The notes: generated from the sequence alone by a model not told the origin. A stretch of 64,000 bases of DNA from Dehalococcoidia bacterium (GCA_025062275.1 JANXAP010000003.1:10950-74949), one strand, 5' to 3'; positions 14,797-56,182 are shown, numbered from the stretch's first letter. Translations and numbers: made by a program.

Positions 14797-14871
14797 GGGC
14801 GGTTAGCTCAGTGGGAGAGCGCTTGCTTCACACGCAAGAGGTCGCAGGTTCGAGTCCTGCACCGCCCACCA
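14797..14871 (+). tRNA. tRNA-Val (anticodon CAC)
   Basis: Cloverleaf GGGCGGT/ACCGCCC acceptor, anticodon loop UUCACAC, T-loop GGTTCGAGTCC, 3' CCA encoded. Confidence 0.8.
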
Positions 14872-14890
14872 CTGCCAGGCCAGAAGCGGT

Positions 14891-14978
14891 GCCCAGGTGG
14901 CGGAACTGGCAGACGCGCTGCGTTCAGGGCGCAGTGCCCCGCGCGGGCGTGCGGGTTCGAATCCCGCCCTGGGCACCA
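14891..14978 (+). tRNA. tRNA-Leu (anticodon CAG), class II with long variable arm
   Basis: Acceptor GCCCAGG/CCTGGGC, anticodon loop UUCAGGG, 15-nt variable arm, T-loop GGTTCGAATCC, CCA encoded. Confidence 0.8.
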
Positions 14979-15027
14979 ACGACCCGGGAAAGCTGACAGC
15001 TGCCGGCCTGGCGGCCCATACGGTAGC

Positions 15028-15105
15028 GCGCTCGTAGCTCAGCCCGGACAGAGCGCAGCCCTGCGGAGGCTGAGGTCGTGGGTTCGAATCCCACCGAGCG
15101 CGCCA
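15028..15105 (+). tRNA. tRNA-Arg (anticodon reads GCG)
   Basis: Acceptor GCGCTCG/CGAGCGC, anticodon stem CAGCC/GGCTG with loop CUGCGGA (G37), T-loop GGTTCGAATCC, CCA encoded. Confidence 0.65.
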
Positions 15106-48286: not shown

Positions 48287-48427
48287 CCTCTCGCCTCGGC
48301 AAGCCTATGCTATCCTCCCGCGGCGGGGACGTCCACCTGCTGCGATACTTGACTTACTCCATCGATAAAGTCCACAATTGGGACATGCCCCTCCGTGGAG
48401 GCCGACCGACCAGGAGGTGAACCGACC

Positions 48428-49813
48428 ATGGCGCTTTTCCGACCCGACCCCACCTTCTACCCTTCGCCGCGGCTGGCCATGCAGGCCCCGCCCGAGACCC
48501 TGGCCTATGTGGCCCTGCTGAATGTAGGCAACGGCCGCCCCGATGCCCTGGCCGTGGTGGACGTGGACCCCAGGTCGTCCAGCTATGGCCAGGTCGTCGA
48601 CCGGCTGGAGCTGCCCAACGTGGGCGACGAGCTGCACCACTTCGGCTGGAACGCCTGCTCCTCGGCCCTGTGCCCCCACATGCCCCATCCCCACCTGGAG
48701 CGGCGTTACCTGCTGGTGCCTGGCCTGCGCTCCTCCCGCATCTACGTGGTGGACACGCGGCCCGACCCCGCCAGGCCGCGCATCGTCAAGACCATCGAGC
48801 CCGAGGAGGTCAAGGGGCGGGCAGGCTACTCCCGCCTGCACACCGTCCACTGCGGCCTGGACGGCATCTACATCTCGGCCCTGGGCGGGGCCGACGGCGA
48901 CGGCCCCGGCGGCATCCTGGTGCTGGACCACGACACCTTCGAGGTGCTGGGCCGCTGGGAGATCGACCGTGGCGACCAGTTCCTGGCCTACGACTTCTGG
49001 TGGCACCTGGCCCACGACGTGGTGGTGACCAGCGAGTGGGCCACCCCCGATCTGTTCGAGAACGGCCTGCGGCTGGAAGACCTGGTGGGGCGCCGCTTCG
49101 GCCACCGCCTCCACTTCTGGGACGCGCGCCGACGCAAGAAGGTGGCCACCGTCGACTTCGGCGACGAGCACCAGATGGTGCTGGAACTGCGTCCTGCCCA
49201 CGACCCCACCAAGACCTACGGCTTCGTCAACGTGGTGGTGAACGTCAACGACCTGTCCAGCTCCATCTGGGTCTGGCACCGAGACAACGGCTCCTGGGCG
49301 GCGCGCAAGGTCATCGAGATCCCCGCCCAGCCGGCCGATAAGGACAAGCTGCCGCCGGCCCTCCAGGACGTGGGCGCGGTGCCGCCCCTGGTCACCGACA
49401 TCAACCTGTCCCTGGACGACCGCTTCCTCTACGTGTCCTGCTGGGGCACCGGCGAGCTGCGCCAGTACGACGTCAGCGACCCCTTCAGTCCCAAGCTGGT
49501 TTCCACCGTGAAGCTGGGCGGCATCGTCGACCCCGGCGCCCACCCTGCCGGCCACGTCCTGACGGGCGGCCCGCAGATGGTGGAGGTCTCCCGCGATGGC
49601 CGCCGCGTCTACGTCACCAACTCCCTCTACAGCTCCTGGGACGTCCAGTTCTATCCGCAGGGCCTCAGGGGCTGGCTGGTGAAGCTGGACGTGGGCGCCG
49701 AGGGGGGCATGGAGGTGGACAGGGACTTCTTCGTGGACTTCGGCGAGGCGCGGGCCCACCAGGTGCGGCTGCTGGGCGGCGACGCTTCGTCCGACTCCTT
49801 CTGCTATCCGTAG
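48428..49813 (+). CDS. Selenium-binding protein SBP56 family (methanethiol-oxidase-like), cytoplasmic form
   Basis: Aligns with human SELENBP1 along its length (ATVDVDP...DELHHFGWNACSS...SSRIYVVD...ITDINLSLDDRFLYVSCWGTGELRQYD...GGPQMVEVSRDGRRVYVTNSLYSSWDVQFYP...GGDASSD). No signal peptide. AGGAGGTGA Shine-Dalgarno before ATG 48428. Confidence 0.9.
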   Translation: MALFRPDPTFYPSPRLAMQAPPETLAYVALLNVGNGRPDALAVVDVDPRSSSYGQVVDRLELPNVGDELHHFGWNACSSALCPHMPHPHLERRYLLVPGLRSSRIYVVDTRPDPARPRIVKTIEPEEVKGRAGYSRLHTVHCGLDGIYISALGGADGDGPGGILVLDHDTFEVLGRWEIDRGDQFLAYDFWWHLAHDVVVTSEWATPDLFENGLRLEDLVGRRFGHRLHFWDARRRKKVATVDFGDEHQMVLELRPAHDPTKTYGFVNVVVNVNDLSSSIWVWHRDNGSWAARKVIEIPAQPADKDKLPPALQDVGAVPPLVTDINLSLDDRFLYVSCWGTGELRQYDVSDPFSPKLVSTVKLGGIVDPGAHPAGHVLTGGPQMVEVSRDGRRVYVTNSLYSSWDVQFYPQGLRGWLVKLDVGAEGGMEVDRDFFVDFGEARAHQVRLLGGDASSDSFCYP

Positions 49814-49819
49814 CGGGGC

Positions 49820-50479
49820 ATGGGCGTCTGGGAGCTTTCCGCCCTGGGCGGGCTGGCCCTGGCCGGGGTGCTGCACGGCATCAACCCGGCCATGGGCTGG
49901 CTCTTCGCCCTGTTCTTCGGCCTGCACCGCGGCGGCCAGCGGGCCCTGTGGCTGGCCCTGGCCGCCGTGGGGCTGGGGCACCTTTTAGCGCTGGCCCTCT
50001 CGCTGGTGCTGCTGCTGGCTGCCAGCTCCACCGTGCCCATCGGCCCCCTGCGCATCGCCGCCGGCGCCGGTGCCCTCGTCCTGGGCCTGGGGAGGCTGCT
50101 CTCCTGGTGGCGGCACCCGGGCTGGCGGGGCCTCAACCTGGGATACGGCGAGCTGGTGCTCTGGGCGGCAGTCATGGGCCTCCTGCACGGTGGCGGGCTG
50201 GCCTTCGCGCCTCTGGTGCTGGGGGAGGGGAGGGGCAGCCTGCTCGACTTCGGGCACTGGGTGCTGCCCACGGCCGTGCACGGGGCGGCGGCGATGGCCA
50301 CCATGGCCGCCTGCGCCGTGGCCGTGCAGCGCTGGCTGGGGCTGATGGCCCTGCGCCGCTACTGGTTCAACTTCGACCTGGCCTGGGGAGTGGCCCTCAT
50401 CGTCATCGGGCTGGCGGTGCTGCTGATGCCCTGGCTATTGCCGGTGGAAGAGGCAGCCCACCACGCGCCGGGGGTCTGA
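49820..50479 (+). CDS. Polytopic membrane protein with repeated His-Gly motifs (possible metal transporter, HupE/UreJ-like?)
   Basis: 219 aa, about 6 TM, motifs VLHGINP, GLLHGGGLAFAP, FGHWVLP, VHGAAAMA. Starts 7 nt after the SBP56 stop, so probably co-transcribed. Confidence 0.5.
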   Translation: MGVWELSALGGLALAGVLHGINPAMGWLFALFFGLHRGGQRALWLALAAVGLGHLLALALSLVLLLAASSTVPIGPLRIAAGAGALVLGLGRLLSWWRHPGWRGLNLGYGELVLWAAVMGLLHGGGLAFAPLVLGEGRGSLLDFGHWVLPTAVHGAAAMATMAACAVAVQRWLGLMALRRYWFNFDLAWGVALIVIGLAVLLMPWLLPVEEAAHHAPGV

Positions 50480-50756
50480 AGGCGGTCTCGGGCACCCGGG
50501 GCAGGCCCACTAAACAAAAAGGGCGGCCCACCGAGAGCGAACGGAGACTGATGCCACGCGCCGGATACTCCTCTCCTGGCTCATGGCTATCACCCCCCTT
50601 CGCTTCGGCGTTCCGCTGGCTAGGGAGGTCGCCCCGAAGAACCGGTGCCCGGCGGGGGGCTCCGCCCAGGGCCTCCGACAGGCCCACGCACAGCCGGAGC
50701 TGCGGGTGGGCCGCCCTCGGCCCCGGGCGCCCGGGCGGGCCCGGCCCCACCGGGCC

Positions 50757-50792
50757 CGCGCCCCTCAGGGGCGGCCTCCACTTATTATTTTA
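50757..50792 (+). terminator. Weak terminator-like element: GC hairpin CGCCCC-UCA-GGGGCG then U-rich ACUUAUUAUUUUA, at the end of a roughly 400-nt non-coding stretch
   Basis: Seen directly. 8-nt gap between stem and U-tract, so non-canonical. Confidence 0.25.
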
Positions 50793-50887
50793 CAGCGGCC
50801 CTTTCGTCGAGACGGGGGCCACGAGACGCCCGACATCCGCTGACCGCTCAGGCCGGACCCTCGCTGGGCGGGTGGCCGGCCGCGGCT

Positions 50888-51913
50888 CTACAGCACCAGC
50901 GGCCGTGGGCGTCGCAGGAGGCGCCAGCGAGTGTCGAAGCGCCACAGCCCCGCCTCGCGGGCGCAGGCGTAGGCCGCCGCCATCTCCTCGCTGCGGACGC
51001 GGCGGTTGATCTCGGCGTATTTGGGCTCCGTCTTCGCCTTCCAGGCCGGGTAGTACTGGTCCATGATGTTCACGTAGGTATCGGGCGAAAGCTCGCGGGC
51101 CAGGAAGCGCATGATCTCCCGCGTGTCCTCCAGGAGGCCCGGCATCACCAGGTGGCGCACCAGCACTCCCCGCAGGGCCAGGCCGTTCTCGTCCACCACC
51201 AGCTCCCCCACCTGCTCGTGCATGGCCTTCACCACCCGCCGCGCCACCTCCGGATAGTCCGGGGCCAGCAGGTACTTGCGGGCGTGCTCCCGCTGCCACA
51301 GCTTGAAGTCGGGCATGTAGATGTCCACCACGCCCTCCATCAGGCGGATGGAGTGCAGGGAGTCGTAGGAGCTGGTGTTGTAGACGATGGGCAGGCGCAG
51401 GCCCATCTCGATGGCGTAGGGCAGCGCCTCCAGCACCTGGGGCACCACGTGCTCGGGAGTGACGAAGTTGATGTTGTGGCAGCCCATCTCCTGCAGGCGG
51501 AGCATGATGCGGGCCAGGTCCCGCGGCGATACCTCTTCACCCTCACCGATCTGGCTCACCTCGAAGTTCTGGCAGAAGACGCAACGCAGGTTGCACCAGG
51601 AGAAGAAGATGGTGCCCGAGCCGCGCCAGCCCCGCAGCACGTCCTCCTCGCCGAAGTGGGGAAAGAAGGAGGCGACACGGGCGTAGCGCCCCACCCTGCA
51701 CACGCCGAAGCGGTCGTGGAGCCGGTCCACGTGGCAGTCGCGGGGGCAGACGGTGCAGTCGGCCAGGGCAGCGAGGGCCTCCTCCACCTTCTCCTTCAGG
51801 CGTCCCTCCTCATAGGTCTTCAGGTAGGCGGGGACGAAGTTGCGACGGGGCAGTACGAAGCGACCGTCCCCGTGCACCTCCCTGGGGATGTCGGGAGCGA
51901 TGGCGAGGACCAC
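50888..51913 (-). CDS. Radical SAM protein, PflX-like (COG1313) activating-enzyme homolog
   Basis: CNLRCVFCQN radical-SAM Cys triad plus extra N-terminal Cys cluster CTVCPRDCH...FGVCRVG. GTG start after GGAGGAGGG. Confidence 0.8.
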   Translation of the reverse strand: MVLAIAPDIPREVHGDGRFVLPRRNFVPAYLKTYEEGRLKEKVEEALAALADCTVCPRDCHVDRLHDRFGVCRVGRYARVASFFPHFGEEDVLRGWRGSGTIFFSWCNLRCVFCQNFEVSQIGEGEEVSPRDLARIMLRLQEMGCHNINFVTPEHVVPQVLEALPYAIEMGLRLPIVYNTSSYDSLHSIRLMEGVVDIYMPDFKLWQREHARKYLLAPDYPEVARRVVKAMHEQVGELVVDENGLALRGVLVRHLVMPGLLEDTREIMRFLARELSPDTYVNIMDQYYPAWKAKTEPKYAEINRRVRSEEMAAAYACAREAGLWRFDTRWRLLRRPRPLVL

Positions 51914-51915
51914 AG

Positions 51916-52845
51916 CTATCCCTCCTCCCCGGTCGGGGAGATGAAGGCCACCGCCTCGCGGGCCCGACGGACGGTGCGGCACTGAGCGCATACCTCGGCA
52001 GTGGTGGGCTCGCCGCACTCGGCGCAGGGCCGCAGGGGCGGCGGCTCGTAGATGCCGAAGAACTGGCGCCCCTTCTCCAGGAAGCCGAACAGGAGCGATT
52101 GCTTGCTGCCCGGCGACTGCCTTTCGATGAGGTTCAGGGCCTCCTTGTACAGCAGCTCCTTGGCCCCTACGGCGTGGGGGCATTCGTCCACGACGTAGTC
52201 GATGCGGCGCAGGACGGCATAGGCGGCGGTCTCCCGCTCGCCCAGGCGGTAGAGGGGCTTGATGCGCTTCACCAGGCCCTCGCGGGCGGGGAGCACCGGC
52301 GCCTGCCGCGCCAGGTAGTCCACGTTCCAGTGCAGCAGGTTGCCCAGCAGGGCTGCCGCTTCGTCGTCCAGGTTGTGGCCGGTGGCCAGCACATCGTAGC
52401 CGAGCTGGCGGGCGGTGCGGTTGAAGGTGTAGCGCTTGGTGGTGCCGCAGACGGCACAGGTGGGCCGTCGGTTGGCACGCGCCAGTTGCGGCACCGACAG
52501 CCCGTATTCCTCCTCGACGGCGACCACGTGGAGGGTGGCGCCGCGCTCCTGGGCGAAGCGCTGGCAGGCCTCCCTCGACTGCCGGGAATAGTCGCCGATT
52601 CCCAGGTCTAGGTAGAGGCCGTGGGCCTCATACCCCAGGCGCAGCAAGACGTCCCAGAGGGCCAGGGAGTCCTTGCCGCCCGAGACGGCCACCAGCACCT
52701 GCTGGCCAGGCTCCAGCATCTCCCAGTCGCGGATGGCGCGCCGCACCTGGTTCTCGAAGTAATTGAAGAAATGGTCGCGGCAGAAGGCGGAGCGGTGGCG
52801 AGGTATGTCCACCACCGCCTGGGAGCGACACACTATACACCGCAC
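51916..52845 (-). CDS. ttuA: tRNA 2-thiouridine (s2T54) synthetase TtuA-like PP-loop ATPase with N- and C-terminal zinc fingers
   Basis: CIVC...CRDH zinc finger, PP-loop SGGKDS, Fe-S Cys CAVC...ECPH, C-terminal CAEC...CAQC. Only the C-terminal 310 codons of the 565-aa track ORF are real. Confidence 0.8.
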   Translation of the reverse strand: MRCIVCRSQAVVDIPRHRSAFCRDHFFNYFENQVRRAIRDWEMLEPGQQVLVAVSGGKDSLALWDVLLRLGYEAHGLYLDLGIGDYSRQSREACQRFAQERGATLHVVAVEEEYGLSVPQLARANRRPTCAVCGTTKRYTFNRTARQLGYDVLATGHNLDDEAAALLGNLLHWNVDYLARQAPVLPAREGLVKRIKPLYRLGERETAAYAVLRRIDYVVDECPHAVGAKELLYKEALNLIERQSPGSKQSLLFGFLEKGRQFFGIYEPPPLRPCAECGEPTTAEVCAQCRTVRRAREAVAFISPTGEEG

Positions 52846-52856
52846 GGCTTCCCCCC

Positions 52857-53063
52857 TCAGCCTCCCGAGACGACGGGCCGCACCTCGATCTCGTCCTCGG
52901 GCCCCAGCACAACGTCGGGCGTGAGAAGCTCGTCGCCGCGGATGACCAGGACTGTGCCCGGGTCGATACCCAGGTGGGCCAGCACCTGAGCTACCGTGCG
53001 CCGACCGTCCAGCTCGAGGGTCTGACGCCTGGGGCCGCGGACGTGCACGCGCATCTCCCTCAC
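52857..53063 (-). CDS. ttuB: Ubiquitin-like sulfur carrier TtuB/ThiS-like (C-terminal GG)
   Basis: 68 aa ending VRPVVSGG, 11 nt upstream of ttuA on the same strand. Confidence 0.75.
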   Translation of the reverse strand: MREMRVHVRGPRRQTLELDGRRTVAQVLAHLGIDPGTVLVIRGDELLTPDVVLGPEDEIEVRPVVSGG

Positions 53064-53096: not shown

Positions 53097-54783
53097 TCAG
53101 CCGTCGCGGCGGCTGAGGCAGTCGTCGGGGAAGGGGCAGGGGAGGGAACGGAGGCGGTGGCTGAGGCGCAGGTTCTCGTCGCCGTCCACGGGGACCGCCA
53201 CCACTGCCGGCTTGCCCTGGTGGAAGGCCTCCTCCAGGACGGCTGACAGGTCGTCGTCGGGCCCCACCTGGTAGCCGAAGGCGCCGAAGGAGCGGGCGAG
53301 GGCGGCGAAGTCGGGATTGCCGAAGTCCACCCCGAAGGGGGCCTTCCCTTCCAGTTGCTGCTTCCACTTGATCATGCCGTAGGAATTGTCCTGCCAGACC
53401 AGGACCACCACCGCCAGACCCAGGCGGACGGCCGTCTCCAGCTCGGCGCAGGACATGAGGAATCCGCCATCGCCGGTGCATACCAGCACGCGGCGGTCCG
53501 GGTAGACCAGCTTGGCCGCCAGCCCCGCCGGCAGGCCGAAGCCCATGGCCGAGTAGCCGTTGGAGATGAGTACGGTGTTGGGCAGGTAAGTGGGAAAGTA
53601 GCGGCCCAGCCACAGCTTGTGGGCGCCCACATCGCTGATGAGGATGTCCTCCTCTCCCAGGGCCTGCCGGGCTGCCTGGACGAGGCGCATGGGATGCACC
53701 GGGACACCGTTTTCCACGGGCGCCGGCCGCCGCTCCCGGGCCACGAGGGCCGTCAGCTCCGCCAGCTTGCCCTGGGCCTTCTCGGAGGGCTGGTATTGGA
53801 GGACGGAGCCCAGCAGCTCCAGGCTCTCGCGAATGTCGGCCACTACCTCCACCTCGGGTCGATAGAAGCGGTCCACCTCCGAGGGTGTGTAGTCGATGTG
53901 GACGATGCGCTTGTCACAGCGGGGGTTCCAGCGCTCGGGATGGTACTCCACCTGGTCGTAGCCGACGCAGATGACGGTGTCGGCCCCGCACAGCCCGCTG
54001 GTGCACAGGTCGGCGTTGCCGGGCAGCCCCACCGGCATCAGCGACAGGGGTTCGTAGTCGGAGACCGCCCCCTTGCCCATGAAGGTGTGGGTGACGGGGA
54101 TCCCGAAGCGGCTGGCAAACCGGCGCAGCTCCATAGCGGCCTCGCGTCGCCGCACGGCGCTGTAGCCAGCCAGGATGACAGGAAAGCGGGCGCGGGCGAT
54201 GACGTCGGCGGCATGCCGCAGGGCGGTGCGGTCGGGCGATGGGCGCCGCGCCCGCCGGGGCGTCAGAGGCCGCAGGCCGTCGTCCACCTCCGCCTCCTGG
54301 ACGTCGGTGGTAAGCTCGATGTGGGTGGCCCCTGGCTTCTCCTGCTCCGCCATCCGGAAGGCCTTGCGCACCACCTCCGGGATGGTCTCGGGGCGGTGGA
54401 CGCGGATGTTCCACAGGGTTACCGCCTCGAAGATCTTGACCACGTCCACGAACTGGTGGCTCTCCTTGTGCAGCCGCTCCAGCCCGGTCTGGCCGGTGAT
54501 GGCCACCAGGGGGGCGAAGTCCAGCTGGGCATCGGCGATGCCGGTGGTCAGGTTGGTGGCCCCCGGCCCCAGGGTGGCGAGACAGACGCCCGCCTTGCCC
54601 GTCAGGCGGCCGTAGGCGTCGGCCATGAAGGCTGCCCCCTGCTCGTGGCGGGTGACGATGAAGCGTATGGAGGAGCGGGCGAGGGCGTCCATGATGTCCA
54701 GCACCTCCTCCCCCGGCACCCCGAAGACGAACTGGACGCCCTCGTTCTCCAGGCAGCGCACCAGCAGCTCGGCAGCCTTCATC
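53097..54783 (-). CDS. Thiamine-pyrophosphate enzyme of the acetolactate synthase large-subunit family (candidate 2-oxoglutarate decarboxylase or ALS-like)
   Basis: TPP motif GDGGFLM...N, N-terminal Pyr domain FGVPGEEVLDIMDAL. No adjacent small regulatory subunit. Confidence 0.8.
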
Positions 54784-54784
54784 G

Positions 54785-56182
54785 TTATTCGGCCGGCGGG
54801 AGCTGGGGGCCGCGGGCCGGCCCCACCCACACTGTCTGGATGTTGACGAACTCGCGGATGCCGAACACCGACAGTTCGCGTCCGTAGCCGCTGCGCTTGA
54901 CGCCGCCGAAGGGAAGCCTCGGGTCGGAGGCCACCATGCCGTTGACGAAGACGTTTCCGGCCTCGATCTCGGCCGCCAGGGCCTGACCTCGCTCGGGGTC
55001 GCCCGTCCAGATGGCGGCACCCAGGCCGTAAGGAGACAGGTTGGCCAGGCGGACCGCCTCGCCCGCGTCCCGCGCCCGCACCAGGGCCGCCACCGGGCCG
55101 AAGGTCTCCTCCCGGAAGGCGGGCATCTCGGGCGTCACATCGGCCAGGACGGTGGGGGCGTAGAAGTAGCCTCTGCCTTCCAGCTTGTGGCCTCCCAGCA
55201 GCAGGCGGGCGCCCATGTCCAGGGAGCGGCGCACCTGCCGGTCCAGCTCCTCCCGCAGGTCGCTCCGGGCCAGGGGGCCGATGTTGGTGGCCGGGTCCAG
55301 GGGGTCGCCCACCCTCAGGGACCTCACCGCCTCCACCAACAGCTCGCTGAAGCGCTCCGCCACCGGCTCCTCGACGATGAAGCGCTTGGCGGCGATGCAG
55401 CTCTGGCCGTTGTTCTGGTTGCGGGCGCGGGCGCCCACCCTGGCCGCCTCCTCCAGGTCGGCGTCGGCCAGGACTATGAAGGGGTCGGAGCCGCCCAGCT
55501 CCAGCACCGTCTTCTTCAGGTGCTGACCGGCGGCCGCGGCCACCTTGGCGCCGGTGGCGTCGGAGCCGGTGAGGGTCACCGCCCGCACCCGCTCGTCGGC
55601 GATGACCCCTTCCACCGCCGCTGCCGGCAGAAGGAGGGTCTGGAAGACGCCCTCGGGGAACCCCGCCGCGCGAAAGACCTCCTCGATGGCCAGGGCGCAC
55701 TGGGGGACGTTGGAGGCGTGCTTCAACAGCAAGGTGTTGCCGGCCATGAGGGCCGGGGCAGCCGCCCGCAACACCTGCCAGAAAGGGAAGTTCCAGGGCA
55801 TGATGGCCAGCACCGGCCCCAGGGGGACGAACTGCACGTAGCTGCGGGTGGCGTTGGTCTCCACCTCCTGGGGCGCCAGGAAGCGGGCGGCGTTGTCGGC
55901 GAAGTAGTCGCAGCACCAGGCGCACTTGAGGACTTCCGCCTCGGCCTCGACGATGGGCTTGCCCATCTCCAGGGTGATGAGGCGGGCGTAGCGGTCCTTC
56001 TGTTGGCGCAGGTGCCTGGCAGCCGCCCGCATCAGCTCCCCTCGCCGCTCCAGGGGAAGGCGACGCCAGTCCTGATAGGCGCGCCAGGAACGCTCCAGGG
56101 CGGACTCCACCTGCTGGGGGCTGTGCTCTTCGAAGGTGGCGAGAACTTCTTCAGTAGCGGGGTTCCGGGAGACGAAGGCCAC
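54785..56182 (-). CDS. NAD(P)-dependent succinate-semialdehyde dehydrogenase-like aldehyde dehydrogenase
   Basis: ALDH catalytic Cys region NQNNGQSCIAAKR, Glu motif LELGGSDP. 1-nt gap to the downstream TPP enzyme gene. Confidence 0.85.
   Translation of the reverse strand: MAFVSRNPATEEVLATFEEHSPQQVESALERSWRAYQDWRRLPLERRGELMRAAARHLRQQKDRYARLITLEMGKPIVEAEAEVLKCAWCCDYFADNAARFLAPQEVETNATRSYVQFVPLGPVLAIMPWNFPFWQVLRAAAPALMAGNTLLLKHASNVPQCALAIEEVFRAAGFPEGVFQTLLLPAAAVEGVIADERVRAVTLTGSDATGAKVAAAAGQHLKKTVLELGGSDPFIVLADADLEEAARVGARARNQNNGQSCIAAKRFIVEEPVAERFSELLVEAVRSLRVGDPLDPATNIGPLARSDLREELDRQVRRSLDMGARLLLGGHKLEGRGYFYAPTVLADVTPEMPAFREETFGPVAALVRARDAGEAVRLANLSPYGLGAAIWTGDPERGQALAAEIEAGNVFVNGMVASDPRLPFGGVKRSGYGRELSVFGIREFVNIQTVWVGPARGPQLPPAE

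Follow-up and report, generated by a model that had tools for sequence, protein, structure and literature searches.

A six-helix membrane protein of an unnamed family is a near-obligate partner of cytosolic-type SBP56 and a candidate copper permease, with a putative structured RNA behind the operon in a Dehalococcoidia bacterium

Introduction

How does a copper-dependent enzyme that works in the bacterial cytoplasm obtain its metal? The question is raised by a locus in a 64,000-nt stretch of DNA from a Dehalococcoidia bacterium (GCA_025062275.1, JANXAP010000003.1:10950–74949), referred to here as the window, to which coordinates refer unless another locus is named. In this locus, a gene for an SBP56-type enzyme (48428–49813, plus strand) is followed by a gene for a six-helix membrane protein of an unnamed family (49820–50479, plus strand) and by an intergenic spacer (50480–50887). 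To our knowledge, the common view is that bacteria are essentially without cytoplasmic copper enzymes and only export copper. Taken as a whole, the locus is best explained, in our judgement with somewhat better than even confidence, as a two-gene operon in which the membrane protein is a copper-supplying permease, with a structured RNA encoded on the minus strand behind it.

Results

We began with the enzyme. The SBP56 gene encodes 461 residues of the SBP56/selenium-binding-protein type, and the original prediction of this gene was borne out: PF05694 matched over the full length (residues 5–459 of 461; 654 bits against a cut-off of 34, E=1.4e-196), and Sulfolobus tokodaii 2ECE aligned with the protein from end to end (E=7.6e-219). 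The score against the MtoX equivalog NF052453 was 117 bits, below the cut-off of 650, and the N-terminus (MALFRPDPTFYPSPRL), as read from the sequence, has no hydrophobic leader and aligns with 2ECE from residue 4. Because of the 2ECE alignment, the low MtoX score and the absence of a leader peptide, we assign the protein by sequence to the cytosolic archaeal/eukaryotic-like type, outside the periplasmic MtoX clade. Genes for SCO1/SenC and MauG were not adjacent to the window SBP56, which is surrounded by plsX, the membrane gene and a radical-SAM gene. The residue set of human SELENBP1 and Roseobacter denitrificans RdMTO was present in full (HH, HxxH(C), Asp189, Glu253 and the C-terminal Cys), and H70, H71, H138, H141, C142, D189, E253, H444 and C459 were conserved in at least 97% of 62 partner-linked SBP56 proteins. 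The SELENBP1 counterparts are His73/74, His137/140, Cys141, Asp189, Glu252 and Cys466, and mutating them abolishes copper binding and/or methanethiol oxidase activity (PMC10362175); the same residues are kept in the bacterial RdMTO, a strictly copper-dependent enzyme (PMC13603461). Co, Fe, Mg, Mn and Zn cannot replace copper in this enzyme type, and selenium is dispensable (PMC13603461, PMC10362175). Recombinant RdMTO from E. coli contained only 0.01–0.17 Cu per protein, a poor loading that its authors attributed partly to species-specific copper delivery (PMC13603461). The window SBP56 is predicted to be a cytoplasmic copper-dependent thiol (methanethiol) oxidase; the substrates of this enzyme type are methanethiol and other short alkyl thiols.

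The second gene encodes a protein of 219 residues, a predicted His-lined metal permease or insertase. It is separated from the SBP56 stop codon by a gap of 6 nt (start minus stop-end = 7), which, with the six helices of the AlphaFold model, confirms the earlier description of a closely spaced gene for a protein with six transmembrane (TM) helices. In loci of relatives fetched via the membrane protein (labelled L001 and so on where they need to be told apart), the membrane gene adjoined SBP56 on the same strand in 89 of 90, and SBP56 lay directly upstream in 88. The order was inverted in one (L017, 4001–6034), where SBP56 is the second of the two genes, 46 nt after the membrane gene in the same orientation; the single exception, L073, begins at the membrane gene and so has no upstream DNA. 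Across seven independent contexts with unrelated flanks, SBP56 was found immediately upstream, with spacings from a 1-nt overlap to a 10-nt gap. The distance between the two matches was 160–350 nt in L023, L034, L044, L048, L053, L078 and L086, which include several Dehalococcoidia and Streptosporangium, compared with less than 60 nt usually. The membrane protein occurs in at least eight phyla, namely Bacillota, Chloroflexota, Gemmatimonadota, Verrucomicrobiota, Acidobacteriota, Actinomycetota, Nitrospirota and Pseudomonadota (Alpha-, Beta- and Gammaproteobacteria included), and the SBP56 proteins linked to it are 59–74% identical to that of the window. Clustering of the neighbouring open reading frames (ORFs) in 80 loci gave no third recurring neighbour, such as a regulator or chaperone, beyond lineage-specific synteny. 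Rather than being unlinked in other genomes, the two genes are near-obligate neighbours in this SBP56 clade across phyla, which supports the functional coupling proposed for them at the outset.

For a reverse test, plasmid loci were fetched via SBP56 and then checked for the membrane partner by profile. The partner was directly downstream in nine of the ten sampled plasmid SBP56 genes at 55% identity or more, with hhalign probabilities of 99.9–100% for the partners, on plasmids of Azospirillum oryzae, A. brasilense, Phyllobacterium, Rhizobium leguminosarum 248, Sinorhizobium fredii NGR234, Ensifer adhaerens, Caballeronia, Rhodobacter sp. CZR27 and Phaeobacter piscinae. Among SBP56 genes at 50% identity or less, it was present in none of the four sampled: Rubrobacter and Natrinema, with unrelated neighbours, Phaeobacter inhibens, and Skermanella, whose MtoX-type SBP56 locus carries a SCO-family protein, seen directly. 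In P. inhibens pP30_b (L101, 2140–6571), an IclR regulator gene comes before an SBP56 gene at 42% identity, and genes for a 2Fe-2S protein, a CoA-binding protein, a rhodanese and a persulfide-dioxygenase-like hydrolase of the MBL fold come after it. This third type of neighbourhood suggests that each SBP56 clade has its own accessory set. The MtoX clade, which is periplasmic, is linked to the copper chaperone SCO1/SenC (PMC5739008), and the cytosolic clade is tied equally closely to the membrane protein. Only the mtoX–SCO1/senC–mauG neighbourhood is described in the literature that we searched, in which we found no description of a membrane partner of SBP56.

To which family does the partner belong? 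The window protein matched no family in Pfam, NCBIfam or the PDB (sequence-profile search of the PDB, none at E≤10), and Pfam and NCBIfam searches with 33 and 9 further members gave nothing consistent, only weak chance matches to DUF389, DUF2818, TrpP and GDT1. A word-indexed search found 136 relatives, of which all the named ones are called “hypothetical protein” and none carries a Pfam domain; the RefSeq members are named likewise. When 1.84 billion cluster representatives (clusters at 50% identity) were searched by profile, 2,891 clusters matched at E≤1e-3 and 1,801 at E≤1e-10, and a scan for the motif NPAMGWLF in one genome per species gave at least 592 confirmed relatives. No informative domain fusions were found among the long members. 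A tblastn search of plasmids with the membrane protein returned no match, a false negative, as at least nine plasmids encode clear members; tblastn negatives are unreliable for this family, whose members are hidden by the low-complexity filter or by divergence. By these searches, the membrane protein represents a sizeable family that is absent from Pfam and NCBIfam.

In the family alignment, the conserved residues are G16 and H19-G20-x-N22-P23-A-M25-G26-W27 in TM1 (consensus HG(I/V/L)NPAMGWLFA, with no conserved Asp-His), G53-H54 in TM2, R98 after TM3, W115, H123-G124-x-G126 and P131 in TM4, H154 in TM5, and R179, W182-x-N184-x-D186 and W189 before TM6. The repeated HG motifs that had drawn attention to the protein were confirmed as H19-G20, G53-H54, H123-G124 and H154-G155, which are invariant or almost invariant throughout the family. 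In the AlphaFold model (pLDDT 83, pTM 0.77), which contains six membrane helices, TM1 is broken at residues 22–26 and TM4 at 123–124, that is, at HG motifs. The invariant H19, H54, H123 and H154 fall in TM1, TM2, TM4 and TM5, each within about 2.5 residues of the helix midpoint. The best full-length structural match of the membrane protein was CcdA/DsbD (PDB 5vkv), with 168 of 224 residues aligned. The number of Lys plus Arg residues in the family alignment was 2.4, 3.3 and 2.7 per loop in loops 1–2, 3–4 and 5–6, and 0.1–0.8 per segment in the termini and loops 2–3 and 4–5 (0.6–0.8 in these two loops alone). Because of their higher Lys and Arg counts, loops 1–2, 3–4 and 5–6 are predicted to be cytoplasmic, and the termini and loops 2–3 and 4–5 to lie outside. 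Loop 4–5 is variable in length (median 28 aa) and acidic, and contains 12.5% His plus Met compared with 7.7% overall, with runs such as HAHHQHHAGHAGH.

We propose that the membrane protein is a secondary metal permease or insertase devoted to one cytoplasmic cuproenzyme, to which it would probably supply copper. The metal-supply reading is suggested by the tight linkage, the mid-membrane histidines and the His/Met-rich loop, together with the strict copper requirement of the enzyme type and its poor loading in E. coli. Taking the observed gene identities, conservation and linkage together with the predicted topology and fold, we infer transport, its direction, the metal and the hand-off to SBP56 as follows. 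The outward-facing, acidic, His/Met-rich loop would collect the ion. It would then cross through a central site made up of the four invariant histidines with Asn22 and Met25, halfway along TM2 and TM5 and in the unwound middle of TM1 and TM4. Close to the conserved R98-H99 loop, on the cytoplasmic face, apo-SBP56 would receive it. As this enzyme type requires copper, that is the most likely ion. Given the short gap here and the 1-nt overlap elsewhere, the second gene is probably translationally coupled to the first.

A membrane protein able to ligate a metal or metalloid, perhaps of the HupE-like Ni/Co kind, had been envisaged in the original prediction. The first part stands, in that the protein, with its four invariant histidines, looks like a ligand-lined metal handler; the HupE-like label does not. 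The TM1 signature of HupE/UreJ is HPxxGxDH, which differs from the TM1 motif found here, and hidden Markov models (HMMs) of HupE/UreJ (PF04955, PF13795) gave no match at E≤1 in the 33 members or the window protein. NiCoT/NicO (PF03824) likewise gave no HMM match, and its HX4DH motif does not occur in the family alignment.

Could the partner nonetheless handle some other ligand (Zn, Ni, Co or a Se/S species), or export a product (sulfide, persulfide or an H2O2-related species)? His-only sites also suit Ni, Co or Zn, as in HupE/UreJ-type and NiCoT permeases, and the conservation, the model and the loop composition fix neither the ion nor the direction. The SBP56 family takes its name from selenium binding, and there is a report of zinc binding (PMC13603461); the activity of the enzyme, however, is strictly copper dependent and selenium is dispensable for it (PMC13603461, PMC10362175), and H2S, as a candidate for export, crosses membranes freely (PMC10936201). 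With no Ni/Co family signature or HMM match, and with an outward His/Met-rich loop that fits capture from outside, we regard this possibility as unlikely. Four invariant histidines in four TM helices are the pattern of di-haem cytochromes b too, and a strict 1:1 linkage with probable translational coupling would suit a stable complex, but it is very improbable that the partner is a membrane anchor or electron acceptor (b-type cytochrome) that docks SBP56 as a respiratory-chain-linked dehydrogenase: a haem-binding electron acceptor is less likely than a metal handler because all four histidines lie at about the same depth, at helix midpoints, and do not form one pair towards each face, two of them occupy unwound helix breaks next to Gly, Asn and Pro, as is typical of ion sites, no Pfam cytochrome b match was obtained, and the outward loop is rich in His and Met.

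Several points weigh against a copper permease that serves SBP56. The window protein's own 4–5 loop is short and contains one His only. No internal 3+3 repeat was detected when the N-terminal and C-terminal halves of the membrane protein were compared by hhalign. The clustering of the four histidines is suggested by helix positions in the model, and an all-histidine site does not by itself identify copper. The SBP56 of the Streptomyces NBC_01450 plasmid, at 58% identity the one exception among the ten sampled, has no partner within 1.5 kb. For this membrane family, copper transport, metal binding and an interaction with SBP56 are predictions made from sequence.

Upstream of SBP56, a ribosome-binding site (AGGAGG, 48412–48417, plus strand) lies 10 nt before the ATG. 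A sigma-70-like promoter candidate (TTGACT-18-CACAAT, 48349–48378, plus strand), a match to the consensus, precedes it; one promoter-like site was found upstream of SBP56, compared with 0.2 expected in shuffles.

We next turned to the spacer, whose 408 nt (50480–50887) separate the membrane gene from the stop codon of a radical-SAM gene in convergent orientation (50888–51913, minus strand, 341 aa; PF04055, E=3.8e-10). The latter forms the right-hand boundary of the spacer and lies outside the module; it was called at 340–341 aa in L092, L006 and L004, compared with 431 aa for the mechanical ORF in the window, and a near-identical contig has the same gene calls around the spacer as the window. 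Owing to the G+C content of 69%, spurious long ORFs occur on both strands of the window; homology supports three genes in 48.4–51.9 kb. The spacer had been described as a long non-coding stretch, and it proved to be one, its ORFs being unsupported. A plus-strand ORF at 50583–50843 was rejected as coding: its ATG is lost in relatives, and its frame is shifted by 1-nt and 6-nt indels. A 24-codon ORF on the minus strand (50584–50510; MSQERSIRRVASVSVRSRWAALFV) was also rejected, with about 7–8 non-synonymous versus 2 synonymous changes between the lineages and loss of the stop in L001; it lies in the 3' hairpin described below, is preceded by GGGGGG/GGAGG (GGAGGG in L001), and its start has changed from ATG to GTG in the L001 lineage. 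The scan with Rfam 15 that had been suggested as a check matched no family in the spacer (50300–51100, E≤10, permissive filters) and returned only a chance sR53 fragment. The absence of a tRNA-Sec was confirmed with ARAGORN and Rfam over the 64-kb window, in which the only matches were tRNA-Val (CAC), tRNA-Leu (CAG) and tRNA-Arg (GCG) at 14797–15105 (plus strand).

Within the spacer lies a conserved core (50517–50713, minus strand) that is bounded by an inverted repeat and is common to the window and the lineage of L001, L002, L003 and L093. By blastn, 197 nt of it are 85% identical to the L001/L002/L003 lineage, and the block has the same distance from the membrane-gene stop in both. Aligned columns of the core are 88% identical between the lineages, compared with about 70% for four-fold sites of the flanking genes and about 50% for the remainder of the spacer. 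For the window and L094, a close relative with the same synteny, the core figure is 95%, compared with 82–87%. A scan of a metagenome collection with 22 nt of the core found only two more copies, in L094 and in L093 of the L001 lineage, both at the same operon locus. No diverged copies were found outside the two lineages by nhmmer and blastn in 95 loci and the window; the core is absent from 85 other loci and occurs once in the 64-kb window. The spacers of other relatives measure 16 nt in L004 and L005 and 181 unrelated nt in L006, and in L091 the genes overlap. In the L001 lineage, a FakA-like gene takes the place of the radical-SAM gene downstream, and the core stays.

The core is most likely part of a structured RNA of about 200–270 nt on the minus strand, convergent with the operon, a reading suggested by substitution patterns, folding energies and a U tract. 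In the predicted fold, domain 1 is a long helix (50622–50782, minus strand) in which the G+C-rich segment 50718–50782 pairs with the centre of the core (50622–50680) and encloses a 5' hairpin (50681–50712). Domain 2 is an imperfect hairpin of 94 nt and 36 bp (50523–50616, minus strand; RNAalifold, four sequences), in which 100% of cells are paired and four one-sided changes and one two-sided change all keep minus-strand pairing. The RNAalifold consensus reached −104 kcal/mol on the minus strand, compared with −82 kcal/mol and several broken pairs on the plus strand; for the single sequence 50505–50782, the values were −195.3 kcal/mol (z=−7.45) and −163.4 (z=−4.2), respectively. The minus-strand fold of L094 has the same architecture (z=−6.5); in the L001 lineage, the 5' part differs and the fold is weaker (z=−2.2).

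The substitutions point the same way. Of 190 columns in the core, 38 vary, namely 11 of 126 paired and 27 of 64 unpaired columns (Fisher p=1.6e-7; four sequences). Eight of the nine substituted pairs keep minus-strand pairing (seven G.U and one GC-to-AU double change), and seven of the nine become C.A mismatches on the plus strand. The differences between the window and L094 in paired columns keep minus-strand pairing in 4 of 4 cases; when they are counted in, 8 of 8 independent one-sided changes fit pairing on the minus strand alone (p=0.004). Because the one-sided changes are wobble-compatible on the minus strand only and variable sites avoid paired columns, selection would appear to act at the RNA level. 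A U tract (UUUUUGUUU, 50512–50520, minus strand) follows the 3' hairpin, is retained in L094, L001 and L093, and is the likely 3' end of the RNA, 33–41 nt from the membrane-gene stop; in the spacer, the scan called a single terminator-like site, on the minus strand at 50542–50526 plus a U tract. The core contains three occurrences of GGCCCAC(C) or its complement (50520–50532, 50681–50687 and 50705–50717), and 50520–50532 and 50705–50717 form a perfect 13-nt inverted repeat, of which 9 bp with one G.U are left in the L001 lineage. The 5' copy could form either the local 5' hairpin or a helix that closes on the 3' end (13 bp in the window, 9 bp in L001), the two being mutually exclusive. The sole A+T-rich patch of the spacer (CTGTAAAATAATA, 50783–50795, minus strand) lies just upstream of the first paired base of domain 1, and TAAAAT within it (50792–50787) is a possible −10 region. 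We would guess at a small RNA that stands alone and overlaps transcripts reading through from the operon.

The following counts against the minus-strand RNA. No promoter was found for it, there being no −35 match and no call of the patch by the scan. The RNA is seen in two lineages only, with four distinct sequences from which the structure itself was derived; one pair only is truly compensatory, and a shuffle control of the pair counting was not significant (76/500).

A doubtful but plausible alternative is that the element is palindromic or mobile DNA (MITE-like), or a 3' untranslated region (UTR) with the terminator of the upstream minus-strand gene. It is bounded, as by terminal inverted repeats, by the perfect 13-nt repeat; its presence is patchy, the closer relative L006 and L004, L005 and L091 being without it; and the synteny break with the L001 lineage falls exactly at its edge. 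The terminator-like hairpin and U tract at its end lie downstream of a minus-strand gene, and no promoter was found. Against these readings, the element is single copy in the window, its two further exact-core copies are both behind the same operon, and no target-site duplication was seen at the ends; it also stays by the SBP56 operon while the upstream minus-strand gene changes. The 88% identity compared with 70% at four-fold sites, the avoidance of paired columns by variable sites and the pairing-compatible changes on the minus strand count against them too. We rank these readings below a minus-strand RNA because of the single copy, the RNA-level constraint and the retention by the operon when the other flank changes.

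The original prediction had read the spacer as a possible long 3' UTR or small RNA that ends, on the plus strand, in a hairpin and U-rich tail (about 50760–50795). A conserved and highly structured core does exist, but the evidence points to the other strand. The absence of a plus-strand terminator directly after the membrane gene makes read-through plausible, and the plus strand folds better than shuffles (z=−4.2); yet its consensus fold is the weaker and contains broken pairs, seven of the nine paired-column changes break its pairing, and conservation in the L001 lineage does not extend beyond the core. The proposed terminator has a stem of 5–6 bp with a U-rich run that starts 9–10 nt after it, compared with a G+C-rich stem and a T run within 0–2 nt in an intrinsic terminator; it was not called by the scan and folds at chance level (z=0.09 against shuffled sequence). 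Its “U-rich tail” is the A+T-rich patch that reads TAAAAT on the minus strand. The GGGCCCG-type repeats reported there are real as G+C-rich inverted repeats (e.g. GCGGGCCCGG/CCGGGCCCGC at 50735–50759), but not as repeats as such: in the minus-strand fold, the region 50718–50782 is the 5' strand of the long helix. A plus-strand transcript as the functional element is decidedly unlikely.

Beyond the spacer, the radical-SAM gene is followed on the minus strand by a TtuA-like ATP-pyrophosphatase (PF01171, LIM-type N-domain, 51916–52845) and a small ThiS/TtuB-like protein that ends in Gly-Gly (52857–53048); the genes of 50888–53048 resemble a cluster for tRNA 2-thiolation or a sulfur carrier. In the mechanical ORF list, the reading frames of this cluster are merged or lengthened (431 aa and 565 aa). 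The sulfur-carrier genes are in turn followed, at 53097–56182 (minus strand), by genes for an acetolactate-synthase-like TPP-dependent enzyme of about 561 aa and an aldehyde dehydrogenase of 465 aa, and the order is the same in L006 and L092.

Discussion

In its boldest form, which we hold tentatively and clearly short of an even chance, our interpretation is that the partner represents a new family of copper importers that solely load a cytoplasmic cuproenzyme, and that the adjoining minus-strand RNA is a lineage-specific regulator of the operon. If this is true, SBP56 and its partner deliberately bring copper into the cytoplasm in at least eight phyla and hundreds of species, which would contradict the common view stated above and bear on purposeful cytoplasmic copper supply in bacteria. 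A near-invariable partner gene that is annotated everywhere as “hypothetical protein” offers a testable answer to how SBP56 acquires its copper, and it is present in the tractable Sinorhizobium fredii NGR234, Azospirillum brasilense and Rhizobium leguminosarum. Of lesser importance is the intergenic RNA, a lineage-restricted candidate for an unusually stable structured transcript. What is new here is an undescribed membrane family tied to SBP56; a metalloenzyme gene accompanied by a dedicated metal-supply gene is of a known kind.

Among known systems, the probable working of the partner is matched most closely by HupE/UreJ (PF04955) and NiCoT (PF03824), which are linked to hydrogenase and urease genes. 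These permeases, too, are proteins of about 200 aa with six helices and intramembrane histidines, and their genes adjoin that of the metalloenzyme supplied. The partner differs from them in its motif (HGxNPAMGW / GH / HGxG / H), in having no conserved intramembrane acidic residues, and in that the linked enzyme uses copper. With CcdA/DsbD and other six-helix proteins of the LysE superfamily, the predicted structure appears to share six helices and the interruption of TM1 and TM4 at conserved small or Pro residues bearing functional side chains.

The intergenic RNA resembles the structured bacterial RNAs of about 200 nt in Rfam (6S, SRP and riboswitches) in size, extensive pairing and a terminal U tract, and is unlike them in matching no Rfam family and in being confined to two sister lineages. 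The window SBP56 is like human SELENBP1, C. elegans SEMO-1 and R. denitrificans RdMTO in its copper and activity residues and in its cytosolic-type N-terminus (PMC10362175, PMC13603461), whereas no partner protein has been described for those enzymes. As a gene arrangement, the locus recalls the mtoX–SCO1/senC–mauG operon of Hyphomicrobium, Ruegeria and others, in which an SBP56-family enzyme is co-transcribed with an accessory gene thought to supply copper and the linkage is conserved across many genomes (PMC5739008). In contrast to that operon, the SBP56 of the window is without a signal peptide and has no adjacent SCO1 or MauG, and its accessory is an integral membrane protein of an unnamed family.

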